A DNA stretch of 64,000 nucleotides, from the NCBI GenBank assembly GCA_963707955.1, contig OY970176.1, positions 544,001-608,000 of the forward strand, in the 5' to 3' direction. Position 1 is the first letter of the stretch. Every line of letters begins with the position of its first letter. The DNA comes from Candidatus Bathyarchaeota archaeon (GTDB lineage: Archaea > Thermoproteota > Bathyarchaeia > Bathyarchaeales > Bathycorpusculaceae). The position numbers and the translations under genes are program-made. Shown here piece after piece: positions 6,292-12,696 of this stretch. A model generated the notes under the pieces. It worked only from the letters and a program-made list of their open reading frames with translations. It had not been told where the DNA came from and did not search any database.

Positions 6292-6537
6292 CTCCCCAAA
6301 AACGTAATGTGCTGGTTTCTAATAACGTTTGTCAGAACCGCTTTTCTGTTTGCCCAATGCTGAGGCGCGTTACTCCTTCCTTCTGAGGCATTGAACCTAA
6401 GGTTTTTCCTATTTCTCTGAAAATCTGTCCGAGTAAGAGCAGAGAGGACCATACCTTGCAAGAATAGAAACTGGCCGTTCCAGCACTGATTGCACAAAAA
6501 TCCGACTAGACTAGCTTTATTTCGCACAATACGCCAT

Positions 6538-6661
6538 TGGTGGGGTCGCTGGGATTTGAACCCAGGATCGCCAACGCCCCAGGTCTGGTATACTAAACCA
6601 CTCAAGGTAACGGTGGACCAGTATACTATACAGTCACCGTCACTAGCTATACGACGACCCC
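6538..6661 (-). tRNA. tRNA-Pro(GGG) with a 44-nt D-loop intron (6601-6644) and encoded CCA; one extra base in the anticodon stem
   Basis: Reverse complement reads GGGGTCG-TC-GTATAGCT-[intron]-TGGTTTAGTATA-CCA(G)AC-CTGGGGC-GTTGG-CGATC-CTGGG-TTCAAAT-CCCAG-CGACCCC-A-CCA; the intron ends pair as GTGACGGTG/CACCGTTAC. Confidence 0.85.
6581..6602 (+). repeat. attL of element I
   Basis: AGGTCTGGTATACTAAACCACT matches 12378-12398 except for one extra C. Confidence 0.85.
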
Positions 6662-7551
6662 AACCAGAGACACGATACCAAGAGCAGATAGATAAAACCA
6701 TCGAAAAAGCCACAATCGAAGGAAAAGCCAAGAACACAATCAACGCCTTCAGACACAGACTAATAGAACTAAGTAGAGTAGCCGACCTAATGAACCCCGA
6801 CGACGCTAAGAAAGCAATCGGATACTCAAAACTATCAAACTCTAGCAAATGCTCATTCGCCCTAGCATATGAATGGTTCACCAAAGCCAATGGCCTCAAA
6901 TGGGAAAGACCAAAATTCAAATGGAACCTAACCACGCCGATTATCCCAACCACTGACCAAGTGAACAAAATAATCTCAGCCACAACACTAAGATTTGCTA
7001 CCATATTCAAGTTAATGGCAGAAACAGCCGCAGAAGGCGAAGAATTACACCGAACACACCGAAATCAATTCGAGCAAACGCAAGGCATCATAAGCATAAA
7101 GGGACTCAAAGGACACGATTCAGCCAACTACAAACTGAAACCGCCGATAGCCGAAATGCTCAGAGAATACTTAGCCAAGAACCCCCAAAACTACCCATTC
7201 CCACGACCATACGTAATGTCAGTCATGTGGCGACGAGCAAGAGAAACAGCTTCGAAGAACAACAACGACCCAAGCCTCAAAGCTATACCCATGAAAAGCT
7301 TACGCAACTACTCAGGCGCACAATTCTGGTACAACTTCCCTGACCCGATCGGCGTAATGAGACACCTAAGACACAAGCGCATGGAAACAACAATGCACTA
7401 CCTAAGAGCAATAACCCTAGACGGAGACATCGAATACGACTGTAAAATAGTTGACAGTACAGACACAGAAGGAATCAAGAAGCTCATCGAACTAGGCTAC
7501 ACCAAACAAGACGAAGCAAACGGAAAACACTTCTACCGAAAACGCAAATAG
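6586..7551 (+). CDS. int: Tyrosine recombinase, C-terminal fragment int(C) of a split integrase
   Basis: GLKGH, KSLRNY and LRHKRMETTMHY motifs; the ORF upstream of 6586 (WWGRWDLNPGSPTPQ) is just antisense tRNA. Confidence 0.85.
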   Translation, partial: WYTKPLKVTVDQYTIQSPSLAIRRPQPETRYQEQIDKTIEKATIEGKAKNTINAFRHRLIELSRVADLMNPDDAKKAIGYSKLSNSSKCSFALAYEWFTKANGLKWERPKFKWNLTTPIIPTTDQVNKIISATTLRFATIFKLMAETAAEGEELHRTHRNQFEQTQGIISIKGLKGHDSANYKLKPPIAEMLREYLAKNPQNYPFPRPYVMSVMWRRARETASKNNNDPSLKAIPMKSLRNYSGAQFWYNFPDPIGVMRHLRHKRMETTMHYLRAITLDGDIEYDCKIVDSTDTEGIKKLIELGYTKQDEANGKHFYRKRK

Positions 7552-7727
7552 CCAATCTCCCCTTTTTTCTTCTAATCAGGCAGAAGCCTTCGTGTTCCTC
7601 GGCTTACGCCTCGTCACACTACAAAACACAAAAACCCAAACTAAAACAAAGCTACCGCTACCCATAGCGCACGCGCTCATTTGGTTGGAGTAAAATTTCG
7701 TTCCAAACCCAAACAGAACCTTAAATA

Positions 7728-8210
7728 GTGCTGGACATTAACAAATCTGTCATGGCAACCAACCAGAAAGCCCTCTTTAAGTTGCTAATCAAATACACTG
7801 TGAGCCCTGAAGAACCTGTAGCGGGTGAACGCGCGAATTTCACCATAAGAATAACAAACATAAGTGACTCAGCATTTCTTGGAGGTAAATTCGATTTCTT
7901 CAGGATCGAGGACGCTGGCGGTCTCGCCACGTCATCGGCACTAGAATCATCATTACCGACAATTCCAGAGATTAAGCCTAATGAATCTTATGAATGGTCC
8001 CATGGCATCAGAATTCCTGTTGATGGACTCGTATGGGTTGAAGCGAAGATTCGAACTAGTGATGGTCAAGAAGTACGGCATTTTCAAATTAGAGAATACG
8101 ATATGGGTACTGAATGGAAATCTCCGTTGCACGTTATTAGTAAGGAAAACAGCAGGATTATTTCACTTTTGAGCGAAATTGCCAAATCCTTGAAATCGAG
8201 TAAAGCTTAA
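7728..8210 (+). CDS. Hypothetical protein, possible Ig-like/CARDB-like fold (element I cargo)
   Basis: SPEEPVAGERANFTIRITN and IPEIKPNES patterns. Confidence 0.5.
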   Translation: MLDINKSVMATNQKALFKLLIKYTVSPEEPVAGERANFTIRITNISDSAFLGGKFDFFRIEDAGGLATSSALESSLPTIPEIKPNESYEWSHGIRIPVDGLVWVEAKIRTSDGQEVRHFQIREYDMGTEWKSPLHVISKENSRIISLLSEIAKSLKSSKA

Positions 8211-8231
8211 TATCTCTAAAAAATCTTTCAA

Positions 8232-8480
8232 TTGCTGATAGAAATGTTTGACCGAAGGGAGCGAGAGTTAGAAAGAGAAAGCGTAACCTACGGTGCTGAC
8301 CTAACACTCAAAACAATCTATGACCTGAAAAAAGAATTTCAGGAGTTCAAGGCTGTCGTACTAGAAAGAGAGAAAATGAGAGAGAAAATGTGGGGAGACC
8401 GTTTAGTCTTTCTTGGACTCCTAATAGCGTCTTGGGCCATTACAACAGGCATACTTTTACATTCGACTGGAACATTTTAG
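8232..8480 (+). CDS. Small coiled-coil protein with C-terminal transmembrane helix
   Basis: Charged helix followed by LVFLGLLIASWAITTGILL. Confidence 0.55.
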   Translation: MLIEMFDRRERELERESVTYGADLTLKTIYDLKKEFQEFKAVVLEREKMREKMWGDRLVFLGLLIASWAITTGILLHSTGTF

Positions 8481-8725
8481 CTACATTGAATCAGATTGCG
8501 CTCTTTGTTTCACGATTGCGATACTTGGAGTTCACGTCTCCTTTGCGAGCGCTACAACAAAAACAAAAGAAACACGCACATCTAATTATCAGGCTTAAGC
8601 CCTGTTGCTCTTCGTCTCACGCGTGCGCCAAAAGGCATAAAGACGTAGACATGAAGAAGAGCGCATGCTTTAAATAGAAACCAATTTAACTCGGAGTTTC
8701 CGACTATCATACAAAGCAGAATCGT

Positions 8726-9439
8726 ATGTCAGATATATTGCCAGACCAAATGTGGTGGCTCATAACTACAATTCTTGCAACGTTGACCATTATTGTACCG
8801 ATTGGTTTATACTGGAAAACTCGAAAGATTCGATTATTTTGTTATAATATTGTTCAACAGACGCCTTTGCTAAGGGTGAACAAAACGATAAAAGAGAAGC
8901 TACAGATAACCTTTGAAGGAAAACCAGTGCAGCAGTTTTACCTTGTCATAATCAGGCTCCTAAACGCAGGAAATACTCCGATAACGACACCTGATTTTGC
9001 GAGTCCAGTCCAAGTGAGTTTTGGCAACGATGCCGAAATACTTACAGCCGAAATCCAAAAAAAGCAACCTCAAGATTTGTTAACATCCTTCGCTATCGAA
9101 GGAAACAAAATCGTCCTCAGTCGCGACCTCCTAAATAAAGGCGAAGGCATTACACTTAAAGCACTTATCACAAAATTTGAGAAGGTGTCGGTAAGCGGAA
9201 GGATTACTGGATGTGAAATCCGTGAGTTTAAGGACCAAAGCCAATCCTATCTTACTAGAATAGCTATTGGTCTCATGGGAATCTCTCTCATCGGGACCAT
9301 TCTCGAGACTCTGACACCGACCTCCAATTTGTATCACTTCATTGCTACTTCTTCAGCAGCTGCACTTGTTGTCGTTATGGGCATGTACACTTACAAGCTT
9401 TGGAAAAAACAGCGCTTGCAAGCTTCGGAAAAAACGTAG
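8726..9439 (+). CDS. Membrane protein with three TM helices and a soluble beta domain (cargo)
   Basis: One N-terminal TM, NAGNTPI motif, two C-terminal TMs. Confidence 0.7.
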   Translation: MSDILPDQMWWLITTILATLTIIVPIGLYWKTRKIRLFCYNIVQQTPLLRVNKTIKEKLQITFEGKPVQQFYLVIIRLLNAGNTPITTPDFASPVQVSFGNDAEILTAEIQKKQPQDLLTSFAIEGNKIVLSRDLLNKGEGITLKALITKFEKVSVSGRITGCEIREFKDQSQSYLTRIAIGLMGISLIGTILETLTPTSNLYHFIATSSAAALVVVMGMYTYKLWKKQRLQASEKT

Positions 9440-9565
9440 TCACGCCTGAATTTTCACCTTTCCCTCTTTCATCAATCACTTTAACAAAAAAAGCAGAAAC
9501 AATGAGTGTCAACCACAAAGCAAGACACACGACAAACAAGGAAAACAACTGAAAACCCAATAGTC

Positions 9566-9757
9566 TTAACGACGATGCTCCCGCCGCCTTCGTGTTCTCC
9601 GCCATGGAATCAACATCCGACCAAACTCAAAAACAATCCTATCAGCACCCTCACGACAAAAACCATCAACACTCAGATGAGCCAAAAACTCAGCTTCAGA
9701 ATCAAAAACAGCCTTACAAGACCGACAACAACAGACACCGCCAACGACAGACCTCAC
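9566..9757 (-). CDS. Small C2H2-like zinc-finger protein
   Basis: CRSCKAVFDSEAEFLAH; abuts the Rep stop codon. Confidence 0.6.
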   Translation of the reverse strand: MRSVVGGVCCCRSCKAVFDSEAEFLAHLSVDGFCREGADRIVFEFGRMLIPWRRTRRRREHRR

Positions 9758-10803
9758 TAGAAATAACCTCTAACATCCATAGCCTCCGCTACCTCCTCCC
9801 AAACAGCAACACCATTCTCCACTAAATCCTCATGAGACTCAACCCTAAAATCAGGCGACTTCCTATCAACACACAAACACCTAGAACCAAGATAGCGAAC
9901 TTTTACCAACCGACGACCACAATACGGACAAACAGACTTCTTAGCAACATACTTAACCTTCAACTTACGATACGAACAAACACCAAACCAAGTCACAACA
10001 CCAGAACGCTTACGGTCAGTCCTCACCGAAGCATGTGAAAGCTGATACTTAGCTGTGTCAAAAATAGACCTACGCTCCCCCGCAACCCCGCGCCCCTCGT
10101 TGTCCACGGCAACCTTAACTATCCAACCGTCACGCTTGAAACACTCCCTTGTGCGACCCTCAAAACCGTGACACTCAGAACAAAACTGTTTCGTACAAGA
10201 ACGGCAGCGATAACCGCCCGCAACAAAACCTAAGATATGGAAATGAGGGCTGAAGAACCAATACCCCGTCGCCCTATTCAAACGAAAGGCATGGCGAATC
10301 ACGCAACCCCCGATGACGCCACGCCTGCCCAAGGCCTCAAAGAGCAACCTATACAACTCGTCAAGACTCAAACTATAACGCTCGGGCGGAACGGATGCAA
10401 CGATGTGTTCACACTTGCCAAACTGCTTTTCAGCCTCCAACGAACGAAACTCGATACTACGAGCCTCGCGATACAACGAACTCCTAAAGCATATGGGGCA
10501 CGTCAGCTTATGGCAACGATAGAAAACTGGATGCTGATAGACCTGCTCCCGCCATTTCTCACCCTGCAACTGCAGCGGTAGTTCATGCCCTTCGACATTG
10601 AGACAACCCCAACGACCCCGATACTTACCGCAGTTCTCGTTAGTCACAGGCCCATGACCGACGAGTTGGTTAACCCCACAATTACCGTAACTATCATTTA
10701 CAAACTTTTGATACTCTTCATCGTCAAACTCTTCATTATCAGGAAAATCCACATTGGCCAAGGACTGACGGTCAGTCACTAAGAACCCCTCCGTTTGAAG
10801 CAT
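9757..10803 (-). CDS. rep: Rolling-circle replication initiator (HUH endonuclease) with Zn-binding motifs
   Basis: Motif I EHIVASVP, motif II PHFHILG, motif III AKYQLSH; Cys clusters CHKLTCPIC, CRSC...CSEC and CPYC. Confidence 0.85.
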   Translation of the reverse strand: MLQTEGFLVTDRQSLANVDFPDNEEFDDEEYQKFVNDSYGNCGVNQLVGHGPVTNENCGKYRGRWGCLNVEGHELPLQLQGEKWREQVYQHPVFYRCHKLTCPICFRSSLYREARSIEFRSLEAEKQFGKCEHIVASVPPERYSLSLDELYRLLFEALGRRGVIGGCVIRHAFRLNRATGYWFFSPHFHILGFVAGGYRCRSCTKQFCSECHGFEGRTRECFKRDGWIVKVAVDNEGRGVAGERRSIFDTAKYQLSHASVRTDRKRSGVVTWFGVCSYRKLKVKYVAKKSVCPYCGRRLVKVRYLGSRCLCVDRKSPDFRVESHEDLVENGVAVWEEVAEAMDVRGYF

Positions 10804-10910
10804 GCACCAAACGGACAGCGATACACACCAATCTCAACAGTCAAAATCGCATGAGCACAGTAAGCACCAACAAAACAGGACGACCCCTGATTCCCCACCC
10901 GCTCAGCCAT
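10779..10910 (-). CDS. 43-aa Cys-rich protein upstream of rep (not in the ORF track)
   Basis: MAERVGNQGSSCFVGAYCAHAILTVEIGVYRCPFGACFKRRGS*, preceded by GGAGG; its stop overlaps a GTG of rep. Confidence 0.5.
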   Translation of the reverse strand: MAERVGNQGSSCFVGAYCAHAILTVEIGVYRCPFGACFKRRGS

Positions 10911-11150
10911 TCAAAAAGACCTCCAACGCAATCGGGAAAGGCTAAGAAAACAGCCAATCCCAACGCCCGCGAGCATTACGCGGAATATGCCATGGGCTAA
11001 CGCATCAAGCCTTTCAAACATCAATTGGTATGTTTTAGAGCTTAACACATCAACCACACCATCAAGCTCGCCGTTACCCTAATATAAATCTTGGGACACC
11101 TTAGTCATAGTGCCTTGCTACCCGATTTGCGCCGATAGAGGAATGGAAAC

Positions 11151-11984
11151 ATGAAGAACAGAGACATCACAAAAGACGAAATCAATAGAATAACAGAGGA
11201 ATGTCAACCCCGAGAAAAAGCATTCTTCACTGTCATGAGGCAGTCGGGACTAACACCACACGCTATAAAGCAACTCAAAATAGGAAACTTGGAAAGAATT
11301 ATGTATCCAAATACGCCGATACCATGCAAAGTAAGCATACCGTATGAAAAATCCCCAACTTTCATAGGAGAAGAGGCCACCAAATACCTCAAACAATACT
11401 TAGCAACCAGAACCCGCGCGAGAGAGAACCTGACATCACAAAGTCTACTATTCACGATACAAAATAACCCCAAAAAAGAAATCAACACAAAAGACGAAAG
11501 CAGAGCATTCAGACGAGCCGCACAAAAACTAAAAAAGAAAAGAAAAATCAACTACGAAATCAGAAGAGGAAAACCAAGCGAATTACGGCTTTACAGCCTC
11601 ATAGAATTCTACAAAAAAAACACCAACGACTACCGAAAGGAACTAGACAACGACACCATACGCAAGAACGATGAATTCTGCAGAAACCTATATGAAAAAT
11701 TAGCCATGCCTTCCTTAGAAATCGAACCGCCATCACCAATAGAAATACACCAACTAAGAAAGGAAAATCAAGAGCTGAAAGAACAATTTATAAAATTAGA
11801 AAAATCCATGGGACCAGTAACGGCACTGTATTATGAACTCGCAGGAATGATTCCTGCCACTATGTTTCCAGAATTAGAGCCCGTCCCAACAGAAAATGAG
11901 GACGAGACGCACATAGACCAACAACGACACACCGTAACACACAAAAGCGCGCGCGCTAAACCTAGTAAACCAATCCAACATTAA
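11151..11984 (+). CDS. Degenerate tyrosine-recombinase-fold protein, probably catalytically inactive
   Basis: Box I-like MRQSGLTPHAIKQLKIGNL lacks the Arg; the HxxR position reads YSLI; C-terminal coiled coil. Confidence 0.65.
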   Translation: MKNRDITKDEINRITEECQPREKAFFTVMRQSGLTPHAIKQLKIGNLERIMYPNTPIPCKVSIPYEKSPTFIGEEATKYLKQYLATRTRARENLTSQSLLFTIQNNPKKEINTKDESRAFRRAAQKLKKKRKINYEIRRGKPSELRLYSLIEFYKKNTNDYRKELDNDTIRKNDEFCRNLYEKLAMPSLEIEPPSPIEIHQLRKENQELKEQFIKLEKSMGPVTALYYELAGMIPATMFPELEPVPTENEDETHIDQQRHTVTHKSARAKPSKPIQH

Positions 11985-12282
11985 AAAGAAACCAAGGTTT
12001 CTTTGCCCGCCAATCATCCTTTGTATGATGAAAAAATTTATTGTCTCGAAGAATCCCAAAGCATCTTGCCCGCCATTCGGCTCTCTCAACATAAATTTTT
12101 CGCTTTTCTCTCCCCTTGAAAAGCGTCTTACATGAAAAAACGACCCCAACGAAATCATGAAGCATCATGAACATAAAGGAACGCAAGAAAATGAAAACAC
12201 TAAAAAGAACCCAACAAGAAATAAGGAATGCCCAACTCTGGGCAGAAATTCAGCTCCCAAAACTTTTAGGAGAAAAGAAAGC

Positions 12283-12696
12283 ATGAACACCAACAAAGAC
12301 ACGACAGAAAACAATGAACAATCAACAACAACAACTAACAATAAAACAACCTCCGTAGAATTACTAAGGTTGAGCGAAGGTTGGTATACTAAACCACTAC
12401 AGCCACCGTTTTCCCGATATAACCACCAAATCGAGACACAAGTGGAAGCTATACGACGACCCCAACCACCTGTCAACTACCTAGACCTCATAATAAACAC
12501 TTGCATCAAAGCAACCAACGAAGGAAAAGCAGAAAACACCATTTCAGCCTTTTTCCACAGACTAAGGCAACTAAGCAGAGAAGCAGACCTAATGAAGTCC
12601 GAAGAAGTGAAGACCGCAATAGCAAAGGCAAAGAACAACAAAACAAAGAAACAAACGAAAAACAACTCAACGCCCGTTGGCTTGTCCCTAAATTAA
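12283..12696 (+). pseudogene. int(N) of element I fused in frame to a truncated paralogous integrase
   Basis: ATG 12283 after AGGAGA; WYTKPL...AIRRPQP...KATNEGKAENTISAFFHRLRQLSREADLM aligns with the 6586 integrase, then breaks off near 12670. Confidence 0.8.
12378..12463 (-). tRNA. 5' half of tRNA-Pro with a different 50-nt D-loop intron (12397-12446); includes attR
   Basis: Reverse complement GGGGTCGTCGTATAGCT-[50 nt]-TGGTTTAGTATACCAACCT; helix ATAG/CTGT and intron stems CCACT/GGTGG and TCTCGAT/ATCGGGA. Confidence 0.8.

Follow-up and report, generated by a model that had tools for sequence, protein, structure and literature searches.

An integrase reading frame that holds the intron-bearing 5′ half of its target tRNA gene in Bathyarchaeia

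Attachment sites in archaeal tRNA genes

In two accounts of suicidal SSV-type (type I) integrases (Badel, 2020, PMC7253208; Badel, 2021, PMC8371274), those of SSV1, pTN3 and pT26-2 carry PF16795 and form a single lineage, and their att sites correspond mostly to the 3′ part of a tRNA gene, with one 5′ exception; the word "intron" is absent from the 2020 paper. As portrayed there, these systems resemble the Bathyarchaeia family described below in that attP lies in the integrase ORF, antiparallel to the tRNA gene, integration parts int(N) from int(C), and hybrid integrase genes can be restored when elements insert in tandem. The Bathyarchaeia att site, in contrast, is the 5′ part of a tRNA together with its promoter and an intron, and the split takes only a short tail off a complete two-domain enzyme.

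The closest precedent is the tRNA-Thr(GGU) gene of Caldiarchaeum subterraneum, where, according to Sugahara (2012, PMC3293823), attP contains the intron-bearing 5′ part of the tRNA and elements are proposed as vectors of tRNA introns. As in our family, integration at an intron-free site there adds an intron and leaves a 5′ fragment behind. The Caldiarchaeum case differs in being one locus in one population, with the intron at 24/25 and a recombinase that does not overlap the tRNA and was likened to the pNOB8 type; its intron codes for no protein, and it comes with no family-wide evidence. Rare cases of integration into the 5′-distal portion of tRNA genes have been described (Krupovic, 2019, PMC6563490). 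XerA and the classical tyrosine integrases acting at tRNA 5′ ends share the fold and Pfam family of the integrase studied here, but in the systems described there their genes are uninterrupted by att and deliver neither intron nor promoter. Within the literature searched, the proposal that tRNA introns are delivered by mobile elements depended until now on a single locus (Sugahara, 2012); the process can now be read in dozens of attL/attR pairs.

The tRNA-Pro(GGG) locus

The window, a 64,000-nt stretch of a Bathyarchaeota genome, contains one whole tRNA-Pro(GGG) gene and, 5.8 kb away, a further exon 1 that comes with an unlike intron and a D-arm:

6661–6538, minus strand: tRNA-Pro(GGG), first copy, whole
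6661–6645, minus strand: exon 1 of the first copy, 17 nt, tRNA positions 1–17; antisense to AIRRPQ of the integrase
6644–6601, minus strand: intron A, in the D-loop, 44 nt; antisense to KVTVDQYTIQSPSL of the integrase
6600–6538, minus strand: exon 2 (positions 17a–73), discriminator and CCA; chromosomal from about position 31–34 onward
6581–6600, minus strand: attL core, tRNA positions 17a–33; identical to attR, TGGTTTAGTATACCAGCCT, after base correction; putative region of strand exchange
6696–6689, minus strand: TATA-like box TTTATCTA, spanning −35 to −28 relative to the tRNA, within integrase codons QIDKTI
12463–12447, minus strand: displaced exon 1, second copy, from reading of the sequence
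12446–12397, minus strand: intron B, 50 nt, in the displaced 5′ half; antisense to QPPFSRYNHQIETQVE
12396–12378, minus strand: attR core (3′ part of the D-loop, 3′ strand of the D-stem, 5′ strand of the anticodon stem), from the sequence and the repeats
12497–12490, minus strand: TATA-like box TTTATTAT, second copy, at −34 to −27, in the int(C) remnant

Intronless tRNA-Pro(GGG) genes of relatives define the mature D-loop as AGCUUGGUUUA, which places the intron between positions 17 and 17a. A repeat search recovered two exact blocks, of 22 and 17 nt, whose copies are separated by 5802 and 5796 nt, respectively; unlike inserts lie between the blocks. Both copies lie antisense within ORFs (6490–7551 and 12157–12696) that show 54% identity over 80 aa and have in common the signature WYTKPL-x14/x16-AIRRPQ, which bears out the original observation of a second 5′ half with a different 50-nt intron antisense in a paralogous integrase ORF. 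The anticodon stem reads CCAG[A]CC at base 6584 and CCA[A]CC at base 12381. Base 6584 is absent from short-read contigs of two runs of one study (32.4/32.4 and 6.23/6.23 depth), base 12381 is a C in contigs of the same two runs, and CCAGCC occurs in all five same-genus genomes having the region; the extra base 6584 and the odd base 12381 are most likely assembly errors.

The tRNA-Pro(GGG) at 6661–6538 is the sole such gene in the 2.35-Mb genome. A blastn search with the pre-tRNA found no second tRNA-Pro(GGG) 3′ half in the genome, and the independent intact copy that was to be looked for according to the original prediction is found nowhere else in it by blastn or ARAGORN. The other Pro calls by ARAGORN are Pro(CGG), Pro(UGG) and one labelled Pro(agg); the last was rejected as a second Pro(GGG), as its printed sequence does not match the tRNA of the locus. 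The gene at 6661–6538 itself went undetected by ARAGORN and Rfam.

The integrase and its reading frame

The protein-coding parts that flank the two tRNA copies are as follows:

6667–7551, plus strand: int(C), XerA-like two-domain tyrosine recombinase body, 294 aa, assigned by Pfam, fold model and Foldseek
12283–12381, plus strand: int(N), 33 aa, ending in ELLRLSEG; probable ATG at 12283 behind AGGAG, in frame into the D-arm (WYTKPL)
12469–12696, plus strand: remnant of an older paralogous int(C), ~76 aa, fused in frame to the int(N) of the newer element

The called ORF (6490–7551) extends beyond the int(C) body through the tRNA antisense. All 14 family members compared match PF00589 (best E 8.4e-14); the integrase of the window scores 26.5 bits, just below the cut-off of 27.1. 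PF16795 matches 1 of 14, at an E of 0.044. An AF2 model (pLDDT 90.7) gave 69 Foldseek hits at E ≤ 0.001, with XerA at 3.9e-10; the best structural matches of the part downstream of exon 1 are XerA, IntI4, XerH and lambda Int 75–356. The SSV1 integrase chain appears neither among PDB sequence hits at E ≤ 1 nor among ranks 1–50 of the Foldseek matches listed. By profile match and predicted fold, the integrase is XerA-like (PF00589) and not of the SSV family (PF16795), which sets it apart from the SSV-type systems and corrects the original comparison with that type. Sequence comparison suggests that integration through an attP in the integrase ORF may have arisen outside the SSV lineage too. In a profile alignment to XerA, K148, R213, H236 and Y245 align; the first catalytic Arg of XerA corresponds to E123, an invariant Glu, and its first His to a Lys. 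Given the invariant Glu at the first-Arg position, activity of the integrase is not to be taken for granted.

We surveyed 114 copies of related integrases, drawn from Bathyarchaeia genomes as well as metagenomes; many of them share one sediment metagenome series and are not independent. As predicted from the window, integrase ORFs across the family contain the target tRNA's promoter and exon 1, with the intron and D-arm, in antisense orientation: a complete antisense tRNA adjoins the integrase in 97 copies, 93 of these tRNAs have an intron (72 distinct sequences), and the exons are canonical throughout the 93 loci. The remaining 17 copies include seven with too little upstream sequence to judge and five with the tRNA 5′ part only. 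Of 77 distinct upstream leaders, 45 have a TATA-like pentamer that begins at −35 or −34. In an extreme overlap of information, about 100 bp serve as protein code on one strand, as tRNA exon, intron and promoter on the other, and as recombination site.

Of the 72 distinct introns, 67 leave the integrase frame open all the way from exon 1 to the D-arm (a stop interrupts it in five), and the other two frames are blocked there by a stop in 66 and 70 of the 72. Insert lengths had been expected to be multiples of 3 only. That expectation failed: across the family the D-arm is read in two frames (WYTKP and GILNQ), and at the commonest intron position (n = 56) 43 lengths are divisible by 3, 10 leave a remainder of 2 and 3 leave a remainder of 1; the open frame behind it held. 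At the far end, int(N) is in the frame that int(C) dictates in 28 of 33 pairs, where chance would give about one-third, and out of it in five. In both frame classes a conserved ELLR / CTTAGTAAT motif stands ahead of the core, and locus L090 retains an intact hybrid integrase ORF behind GGAGGTGA and an ATG, its strong ribosome-binding site lying 15 codons ahead of the D-arm. The attP site accordingly lies inside the integrase ORF, and integration divides the gene, severing only a short N-terminal tail and leaving the two-domain enzyme body complete.

These observations also bear on a rival reading, that of an ordinary integrase gene which is not split and simply overlaps the tRNA at its 5′ end, with its start in or near the antisense tRNA and int(N) no part of the protein; a start inside or just beyond the antisense tRNA would mean that integration does not break the gene. 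Such a gene would suit the fold model, in which the part downstream of exon 1 already forms a complete two-domain recombinase, as well as the far-end ORFs of the family, in which int(N) has only ~15–80 codons, is of low complexity and is poorly conserved. It would also suit the 78 of 93 integrated loci in which the frame stays open past the tRNA 3′ end, and the practice of gene callers, which begin such ORFs at GTG or TTG in the antisense tRNA. The tRNA 3′ half, however, lies outside the element, so the free form would have no start codon there. The frame agreement in the 28 pairs, the motif kept ahead of the core in both frame classes, the L090 ORF and the AGGAG and ATG of int(N), conserved between the window and G001 (a relative whose integrase is 87% identical), likewise make an unsplit gene unlikely.

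Introns, their exchange and the element

After removal of a motif-compatible insert, ARAGORN accepted the product in all 93 loci. Among the 72 introns, a central helix H with at least three of four pairs is present in 90% (19% of shuffles), and an inner helix h′ with at least five contiguous pairs in 85% (1.4% of shuffles). In 18 sequences, both partners vary in nine of the 14 h′ pairs, and pairing holds in 90.9% of cells, vs. 36–47% with the partner columns slid. Intron A has two of four H pairs and an h′ of 9 bp; intron B has, by reading of its sequence, four of four. The hairpins originally proposed do form in single-sequence folds, but with energies no better than those of shuffles (z −0.09 and −0.89); support for the structure is comparative. 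The outer helix of a strict bulge-helix-bulge is absent from the sequence as read, and the introns have a predicted bulge-helix-bulge geometry in relaxed form only. Marck and Grosjean in 2003 and Fujishima in 2010 reportedly described non-canonical archaeal tRNA introns with such relaxed (HBh′) motifs. Ours resemble these in lying outside 37/38, in combining a 4-bp central helix with a 3-nt bulge and an inner helix, and in a host genome that encodes two EndA paralogues; splicing would presumably be the work of the host's two-subunit endonuclease. Unlike them, the Bathyarchaeia intron is also a recombinase antisense frame and part of an attachment site, and its sequence turns over with the element.

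Were the inserts unspliced, tRNA-Pro(GGG) would be inactivated, the hairpin would serve the recombination site or the protein, and CCU/CCC would be read by other tRNAs. The silence of ARAGORN and Rfam on this gene, the imperfect central helix of intron A and a motif at the intron centre that is complementary to the D-arm, a possible protein-binding site, could be read that way. We hold it to be extremely improbable: the genome has only this one Pro(GGG) gene, 72 unlike sequences keep exact register with bulge-helix-bulge cleavage geometry while compensatory changes maintain pairing, exons remain canonical, and the intron persists behind native promoters and beside decayed integrases, where no element function remains.

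Identity between attL and attR starts at exon-2 position 1 and spans 16 or 19 nt in most pairs, in agreement with the predicted crossover near the anticodon. For 35 elements both ends are available. In 22 the far end is an intronless 5′ fragment behind a native-type promoter, and in 13 it has a different intron, as the proposed exchange of introns implied. The 22 intronless far ends mean that integration crossed over at positions 17a–30/33, installing the element's promoter, exon 1 and intron: an intron-bearing attP and an intron-free attB gave an intron-bearing tRNA and a displaced intronless fragment. The att site as a whole covers tRNA positions 1–33. G001 holds the same element with intron A at attL, and its far end is intronless behind a native-type promoter.

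A crossover in exon 1, by which intron A would be the host's, intron B the element's and integration would move no introns, is hard to judge from the window by itself, in which exon 1 (22 nt) and the D-arm (17–20 nt) are both repeated. Introns do occur behind native-type promoters elsewhere (L094 and L106 against L093; L119; L103), which means that recombination takes place 5′ of the intron at times. For the window we nonetheless find an exon-1 crossover very unlikely, in view of G001 and of the 22 pairs, in which the crossover must be 3′ of the intron. In addition, integrases of 79–88% identity have a common insert peptide (KVTVDQYTIQSPSL or KVTVDQYTILSPSL), by which intron A is seen to travel with its int(C).

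The best explanation of the whole, in which we place high confidence, is that the element's integrase ORF holds the tRNA 5′ half and intron and swaps them in at integration. In the free element, presumably circular, this ORF would run from the int(N) tail (~33 aa) through D-arm, intron and exon 1 to the recombinase body, its middle being the reverse complement of tRNA-Pro(GGG) positions 1–33 with the D-loop intron, and the tRNA TATA box would fall within the first codons of the body. The integrase would recombine attP with the chromosomal tRNA gene, cleaving at putative sites within positions 17a–30/33. The chromosomal 3′ part would thereby acquire the element's promoter together with its exon 1 and intron, and the host's old promoter and 5′ part would remain as the far-end fragment. 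Pre-tRNA would then be transcribed from within the integrase gene, and the host's splicing endonuclease would excise the intron at the relaxed H-B-h′ motif. The window would record at least two such events, those of an older element (intron B), now decayed to a 300-bp stump, and of the present one (intron A), which displaced it.

Insertion thus gives the host's only tRNA-Pro(GGG) a new intron, promoter and exon 1, which bears on how archaeal tRNA genes gain introns at odd positions. One integrase family places unlike introns at an identical position in a tRNA that is both essential and single-copy. It swaps the tRNA promoter as well, and at times the intron stays behind. Intron-bearing targets are still invaded (13 of 35 pairs), an observation of relevance to the hypothesis that introns shield tRNA genes from integration. 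Tentatively, and with slightly more doubt than belief, we extend this to a view in which integrase elements create, diversify and spread introns in the D-loops of Bathyarchaeia tRNAs (Pro-GGG, Gly-GCC and Arg-GCG), attP has the intron as a functional component, and attP-in-ORF integration originated independently of the SSV lineage. The intron may then be an integrase-coding linker whose inverted D-arm copy binds the integrase. Integration may fall short of being suicidal in the strict sense, since it leaves the recombinase body intact, and the host tRNA would be permanently reliant on an integrase-derived promoter, exon and intron after decay or loss of the element.

The repeats and the integrase are best explained by an integrated plasmid-like element of ~5.8 kb (6601–12396), one of a Bathyarchaeia family with a XerA-like integrase. 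No relatives were found in viral_contigs, and neither a free circular form nor an empty site was found, the contigs of four DNA runs showing no joints such as the excised junction suggested earlier. Of the sequencing runs that contain the locus, none is listed as RNA. Its remaining coding regions are:

7728–9439, plus strand: three cargo ORFs of 160, 82 and 237 aa, from the ORF list
9757–10803, minus strand: Cys/His-rich protein, 348 aa, from a homologue search
11151–11984, plus strand: cargo ORF, 277 aa, without family match

The 237-aa ORF matches phrog_29378 (function unknown). Homologues of the 348-aa protein, which weak leads mark as a candidate rolling-circle Rep, occur in 41 of 112 sequences (111 fetched loci plus the window).

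A tRNA-Pro(GGG) gene with its 5′ half inside an integrase ORF

The tRNA-Pro(GGG) gene in the window was predicted to be chimeric, its 5′ half and intron lying antisense within an integrase ORF. Direct reading of the sequence, a repeat search and an ORF motif confirmed this placement of the tRNA half, and the original interpretation as a whole was supported in its main points. The near end of the element (attL) holds a complete tRNA and the far end (attR) a displaced 5′ fragment, with these features read from the sequence:

6689–6696: TATA box upstream of exon 1
Start of 6661–6538, minus strand: exon 1 of tRNA-Pro(GGG), GGGGTCGTCGTATAGCT
Within 6661–6538, minus strand: near-end insert of 44 nt after exon 1 (intron A, 6601–6644)
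Within 6661–6538, minus strand: exon 2, TGGTTTAGTATACCAG..CCTGGGGCGTTGG, then T-arm, acceptor 3′ strand, A and CCA
12463–12378, minus strand: second copy, with identical exon 1, an unlike insert of 50 nt (intron B, 12397–12446), identical D-arm, then unrelated sequence

The two copies share exact repeat blocks of 22 and 17 nt, and both lie antisense within ORFs that have WYTKPL, an insert and AIRRPQ in common. At this locus neither ARAGORN nor Rfam at its gathering threshold reported a tRNA, and Rfam at an E-value threshold returned only partial matches to the T-arm and acceptor. Because a D-loop intron lies outside the models of both tools, a script was used that applied the cleavage-motif geometry and then checked the product with ARAGORN. 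The genome (G000) is a single contig of 2.35 Mb, of which the window is G000:C1:544001-608000; a blastn search of all of it with the pre-tRNA found neither another Pro(GGG) 3′ half nor an intact tRNA-Pro(GGG) gene elsewhere. With introns allowed, the only proline tRNAs called by ARAGORN were Pro(CGG), Pro(UGG) and one “Pro(agg)”. The last of these, an intron-containing call at G000:C1:1126018-1126135, resembles a tRNA with a long variable arm and a canonical intron, and its label is probably wrong.

The anticodon stem reads CCAGACC in the window, with an extra base at 6584, and CCAGCC in all five same-genus genomes carrying the insert; the far-end copy of the core (the D-arm and anticodon-stem 5′ strand repeated at both ends) has A in place of G at 12381. 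Two short-read runs belonging to a single study gave contigs in which base 6584 is absent and C stands at 12381. Given the disagreement of these contigs and of the five genomes with the window, both bases are probably assembly errors. The extra base shifts the called N-terminus of ORF 6490–7551; its absence from the short-read contigs ruled it out as a recombination scar.

A search for exon 2 in G000 and 40 relatives gave a match in 39 of these 41 genomes. Most other genera, and also the same-genus genome G002, have an uninterrupted gene (...GTATAGCTTGGTTTAGTAT...), and by comparison with these continuous genes the insertion point falls between positions 17 and 17a. Inserts occupy 17/17a in five same-genus genomes: intron A in G001, a 54-nt intron in G004, G008 and G009, and a 48-nt intron in G007. 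The integrase body (window 6586–7551) has 204 relatives at E ≤ 0.001, all named ones being Bathyarchaeia MAGs. Their N-termini are tRNA-Pro(GGG) read antisense in one of two frames, VGSLGFEPRIANAPGWYTKP... or WWGRWDLNPGSPTPQAGILNQ..., each leading through a hypervariable insert to AIRRPQ; the remaining antisense frame meets a TAA within the D-arm.

From 31 genomic and 80 metagenomic loci that were fetched (L-numbers), tblastn recovered 114 integrase copies, the window's own included. The antisense tRNA half expected of homologues is present: 97 of the 114 copies are immediately preceded by a complete tRNA on the opposite strand, 93 of these tRNAs with an insert and four intronless. Among the remaining 17, seven have less than 125 nt of upstream sequence, five have exon 1, intron and D-arm followed by int(N) (the short N-terminal tail) of another element, and the last five have no tRNA-Pro part. 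The target is mostly Pro(GGG), with these others:

Gly(GCC): L058, L059, L065 and L066
Arg(GCG): L053 and L056 with intron, L054 without
tRNA with TCC anticodon, intronless: L051

In the distant members L053, L056, L058, L059, L065 and L066 (39–44% identity), D-loop introns again lie inside the ORF.

The inserts as introns and as protein code

The cleavage geometry applied was, on the 5′ side, a 4-nt strand of the central helix, 2 nt, the cut, 1 nt and the inner helix, and on the 3′ side the inner helix, a 4-nt strand, 2 nt and the cut. In 93 of 93 cases a compatible insert could be removed to leave a product accepted by ARAGORN. The best-scoring splice pair in an unconstrained run was sometimes off-register (labeled, e.g., “tRNA-Thr agt”), and distinct introns were defined by constraining position and mature length. 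This yielded 72 distinct introns of 35–99 nt, 56 of them at 17/17a. The central helix has at least three of its four pairs in 90.3% of the 72 vs. 19% of shuffles, and the inner helix (median 8) has at least five contiguous pairs in 84.7% vs. 1.4%. In the 18 distinct 48-nt introns both sides change in 9 of 14 inner-helix pairs, and 90.9% of pairing cells are paired, as against 36–47% with the partner columns slid. The outer helix is absent, and the motif is therefore of the relaxed H-B-h′ kind. G000 encodes two EndA paralogues, the type of enzyme that accepts relaxed motifs. Intron A has an inner helix of 9 bp and only two of four central pairs; intron B, in our own reading of its sequence, has four of four. 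When the window's two pre-tRNAs were scanned for a strict bulge-helix-bulge motif, no candidate stood out, and single-sequence folding did no better than shuffles. From the patterns of pairing and covariation across the family, we infer that the inserts are spliced; of the listed runs that contain the locus, none is recorded as RNA.

Read in the frame of the recombinase body, int(C), which lies downstream of exon 1, the first upstream stop falls beyond exon 1, intron and D-arm in 67 of the 72 distinct introns and inside the intron in five, whereas the two other frames have a stop in exon 1, intron or D-arm in 66 and 70 of the 72. The integrase frame is thus preserved in most introns, as originally predicted, but the accompanying test, whether insert lengths vary only in multiples of three, fails for 13 of the 56 introns at 17/17a: 43 are 0 mod 3, 10 are 2 mod 3 and 3 are 1 mod 3, a split that fits two usable D-arm frames and not a strict multiple-of-three rule. 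In 28 of 33 pairs of ends, the longest open frame upstream of the far-end core is the one imposed by int(C). In 78 of 93 loci no stop interrupts the integrase frame anywhere across the antisense tRNA, and one might speculate from this that the integrated integrase copy is still translated.

The CTTAGTAAT motif (ELLR) is conserved before the core in both frame classes. At window 12360–12369 and at other far ends it lies ∼5–12 nt past the core in the direction of int(N), resembles D-arm TTTAGTAT as a direct repeat, and could act as an arm site for the recombinase. The window and G001 have in common AGGAG-N10-ATG, 33 codons ahead of GWYTKPL. At L090 an intact ORF stands behind GGAGGTGA; this locus is a tandem array, a newer int(N) being fused to an older int(C), and was for that reason rejected as a free form of the element. 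Window ORF 12157–12696 is a hybrid like that of L090, but its old int(C) is truncated.

Many introns (e.g., at window 6615–6625 and in L142, L146 and L147) have GGTATACT or GGTATCCT at their center, the reverse complement of exon-2 AGTATACC or AGGATACC and co-varying with the D-arm type. A complement of at least 7 nt occurs in 31% of the 72 introns vs. 2.8% of shuffles. As the motif persists whichever of the two protein frames is used, the constraint is on nucleic acid, and it could be an integrase-binding site or serve in RNA pairing. The tRNA-Pro(GGG) genes of L099 and L101 hold two inserts, the D-loop intron in the integrase ORF and a second in the canonical position after the anticodon. 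In L057, L061, L068, L150 and L067, two copies of one piece of the D-loop/D-arm border the insert (e.g., TGGTCTAGGA on both sides); this leaves the intron position ambiguous (17/17a or 24–27), and the duplication hints at how such introns arise.

Site of exchange and movement of the introns

Downstream sequence of 1500 nt or more was available at 78 loci, and 35 of these have a second exon 1 (36 loci on rescanning, one without the D-arm core). At 22 of the 35 far ends, exon 1 is joined directly to the D-arm with no intron; the other 13 bear introns, none identical to that at the near end, although the one in L052 differs by a single base. Many of the intronless fragments stand behind AAAGAAAATAAG-type upstream regions, also found ahead of integrase-free genes in other genera. 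G001 carries the window's element type (integrase 87% identical, homologue of a 348-aa protein 90% identical), with intron A at its near end and an intronless far end. Counted from the first base of exon 2, the two ends are identical over 16 nt in 9 pairs and over 19 nt in 13. The intronless far ends, G001 and the end identity together place the exchange 3′ of the intron, within positions 17a–30/33, and bear out the proposal of a crossover near the anticodon in which the element brings promoter, exon 1 and intron.

Introns were also found behind native-type promoters, the same upstream regions occurring without an intron at other loci:

L094 and L106 with intron; L093 without
L119 with intron; L082, L126, L131 and L135 without
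L103 with intron; L129 without

G004 (L040) has kept its 54-nt intron and ∼50 nt of integrase-derived upstream sequence with a TATA box, with no detectable integrase, and G007 (L038) has kept its intron and an integrase reduced to 44 residues. From these native-type promoters and the two genomes, it follows that an intron can come to belong permanently to the host gene. The remnants in G004 and G007 look domesticated, now serving as tRNA promoter and 5′ part.

In G001 (L037, 7951 and 11180), a third 5′ fragment, cut after TTAGGA, lies 3.2 kb past the first far end behind another native-type promoter; a further, distinct element has apparently been integrated there in tandem. The native tRNA promoter stays at the far end after integration, antisense into int(N) (e.g., L037:7951+), and could drive antisense transcription across the element end. 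In four DNA runs of a single study, the contigs contained neither the 6603/12398 junction nor an empty site, which is not evidence against excision. None of 26 whole-contig loci proved circular when checked for terminal repeats, and no relative of the integrase was found in viral_contigs.

Integrase type, earlier accounts and cargo

PF00589 matches 14 of 14 family members and PF16795 one of 14 (E 0.044). Among solved structures, the top sequence matches are XerA 4a8e (2.5e-10) and 5hxy (2.3e-7), and the SSV1 integrase was not among PDB sequence matches at E ≤ 1. An AF2 model of the 294 residues after AIRRPQ (pLDDT 90.7) has a complete predicted core-binding and catalytic fold, nearest to XerA, IntI4, XerH, Tn1549 Int and lambda Int 75–356. 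With the recombinase body complete past AIRRPQ, the att site would cut off a short tail only. The XerA profile alignment sets the first catalytic Arg (GLRVSEL) opposite Glu E123 (EGEEL; about window 7033–7035, within 6667–7551), invariant in the 14 members, and the first His opposite Lys (KxxR). Sequence and model thus point to a XerA-like integrase, not one of the SSV family.

Sugahara 2012 (PMC3293823) describes one Caldiarchaeum locus and proposes that an intron-bearing attP delivered a tRNA intron; the recombinase there does not overlap the tRNA, whereas here the integrase ORF does. Badel 2021 (PMC8371274) cites this proposal and treats suicidal integrases as one PF16795 lineage. In Badel 2020 (PMC7253208), att sites are antiparallel and mostly the tRNA 3′ part, and the word “intron” is absent. 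No account of this integrase family was found in the literature searched; related integrases may be listed in the supplements of Badel 2020/2021 and Krupovic 2019. Three points go beyond what was found in print: one DNA segment put to three uses, evidence from across the family that elements deliver introns, and an integrase apparently XerA-like rather than SSV-family.

On the plus strand, segment 6601–12396 is strongly skewed toward A over T; its GC is below that of its flanks, and it contains five ORFs besides the integrase. One encodes a Cys/His-rich protein of 348 aa (9757–10803, minus strand) that has no Pfam or PDB sequence match; its AF2 model (pLDDT 77.3) gave no Foldseek match at E ≤ 0.001. 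A conserved SPHFHxLGF and an invariant Tyr, together with weak ESM-atlas neighbors with Rep_1 and weak HUH-type fold matches, are a lead only, toward a possible rolling-circle Rep or HUH-type replication initiator. Cys clusters are conserved as well, and homologues accompany the integrase in 41 of the 112 sequences of the search set, which includes the window.
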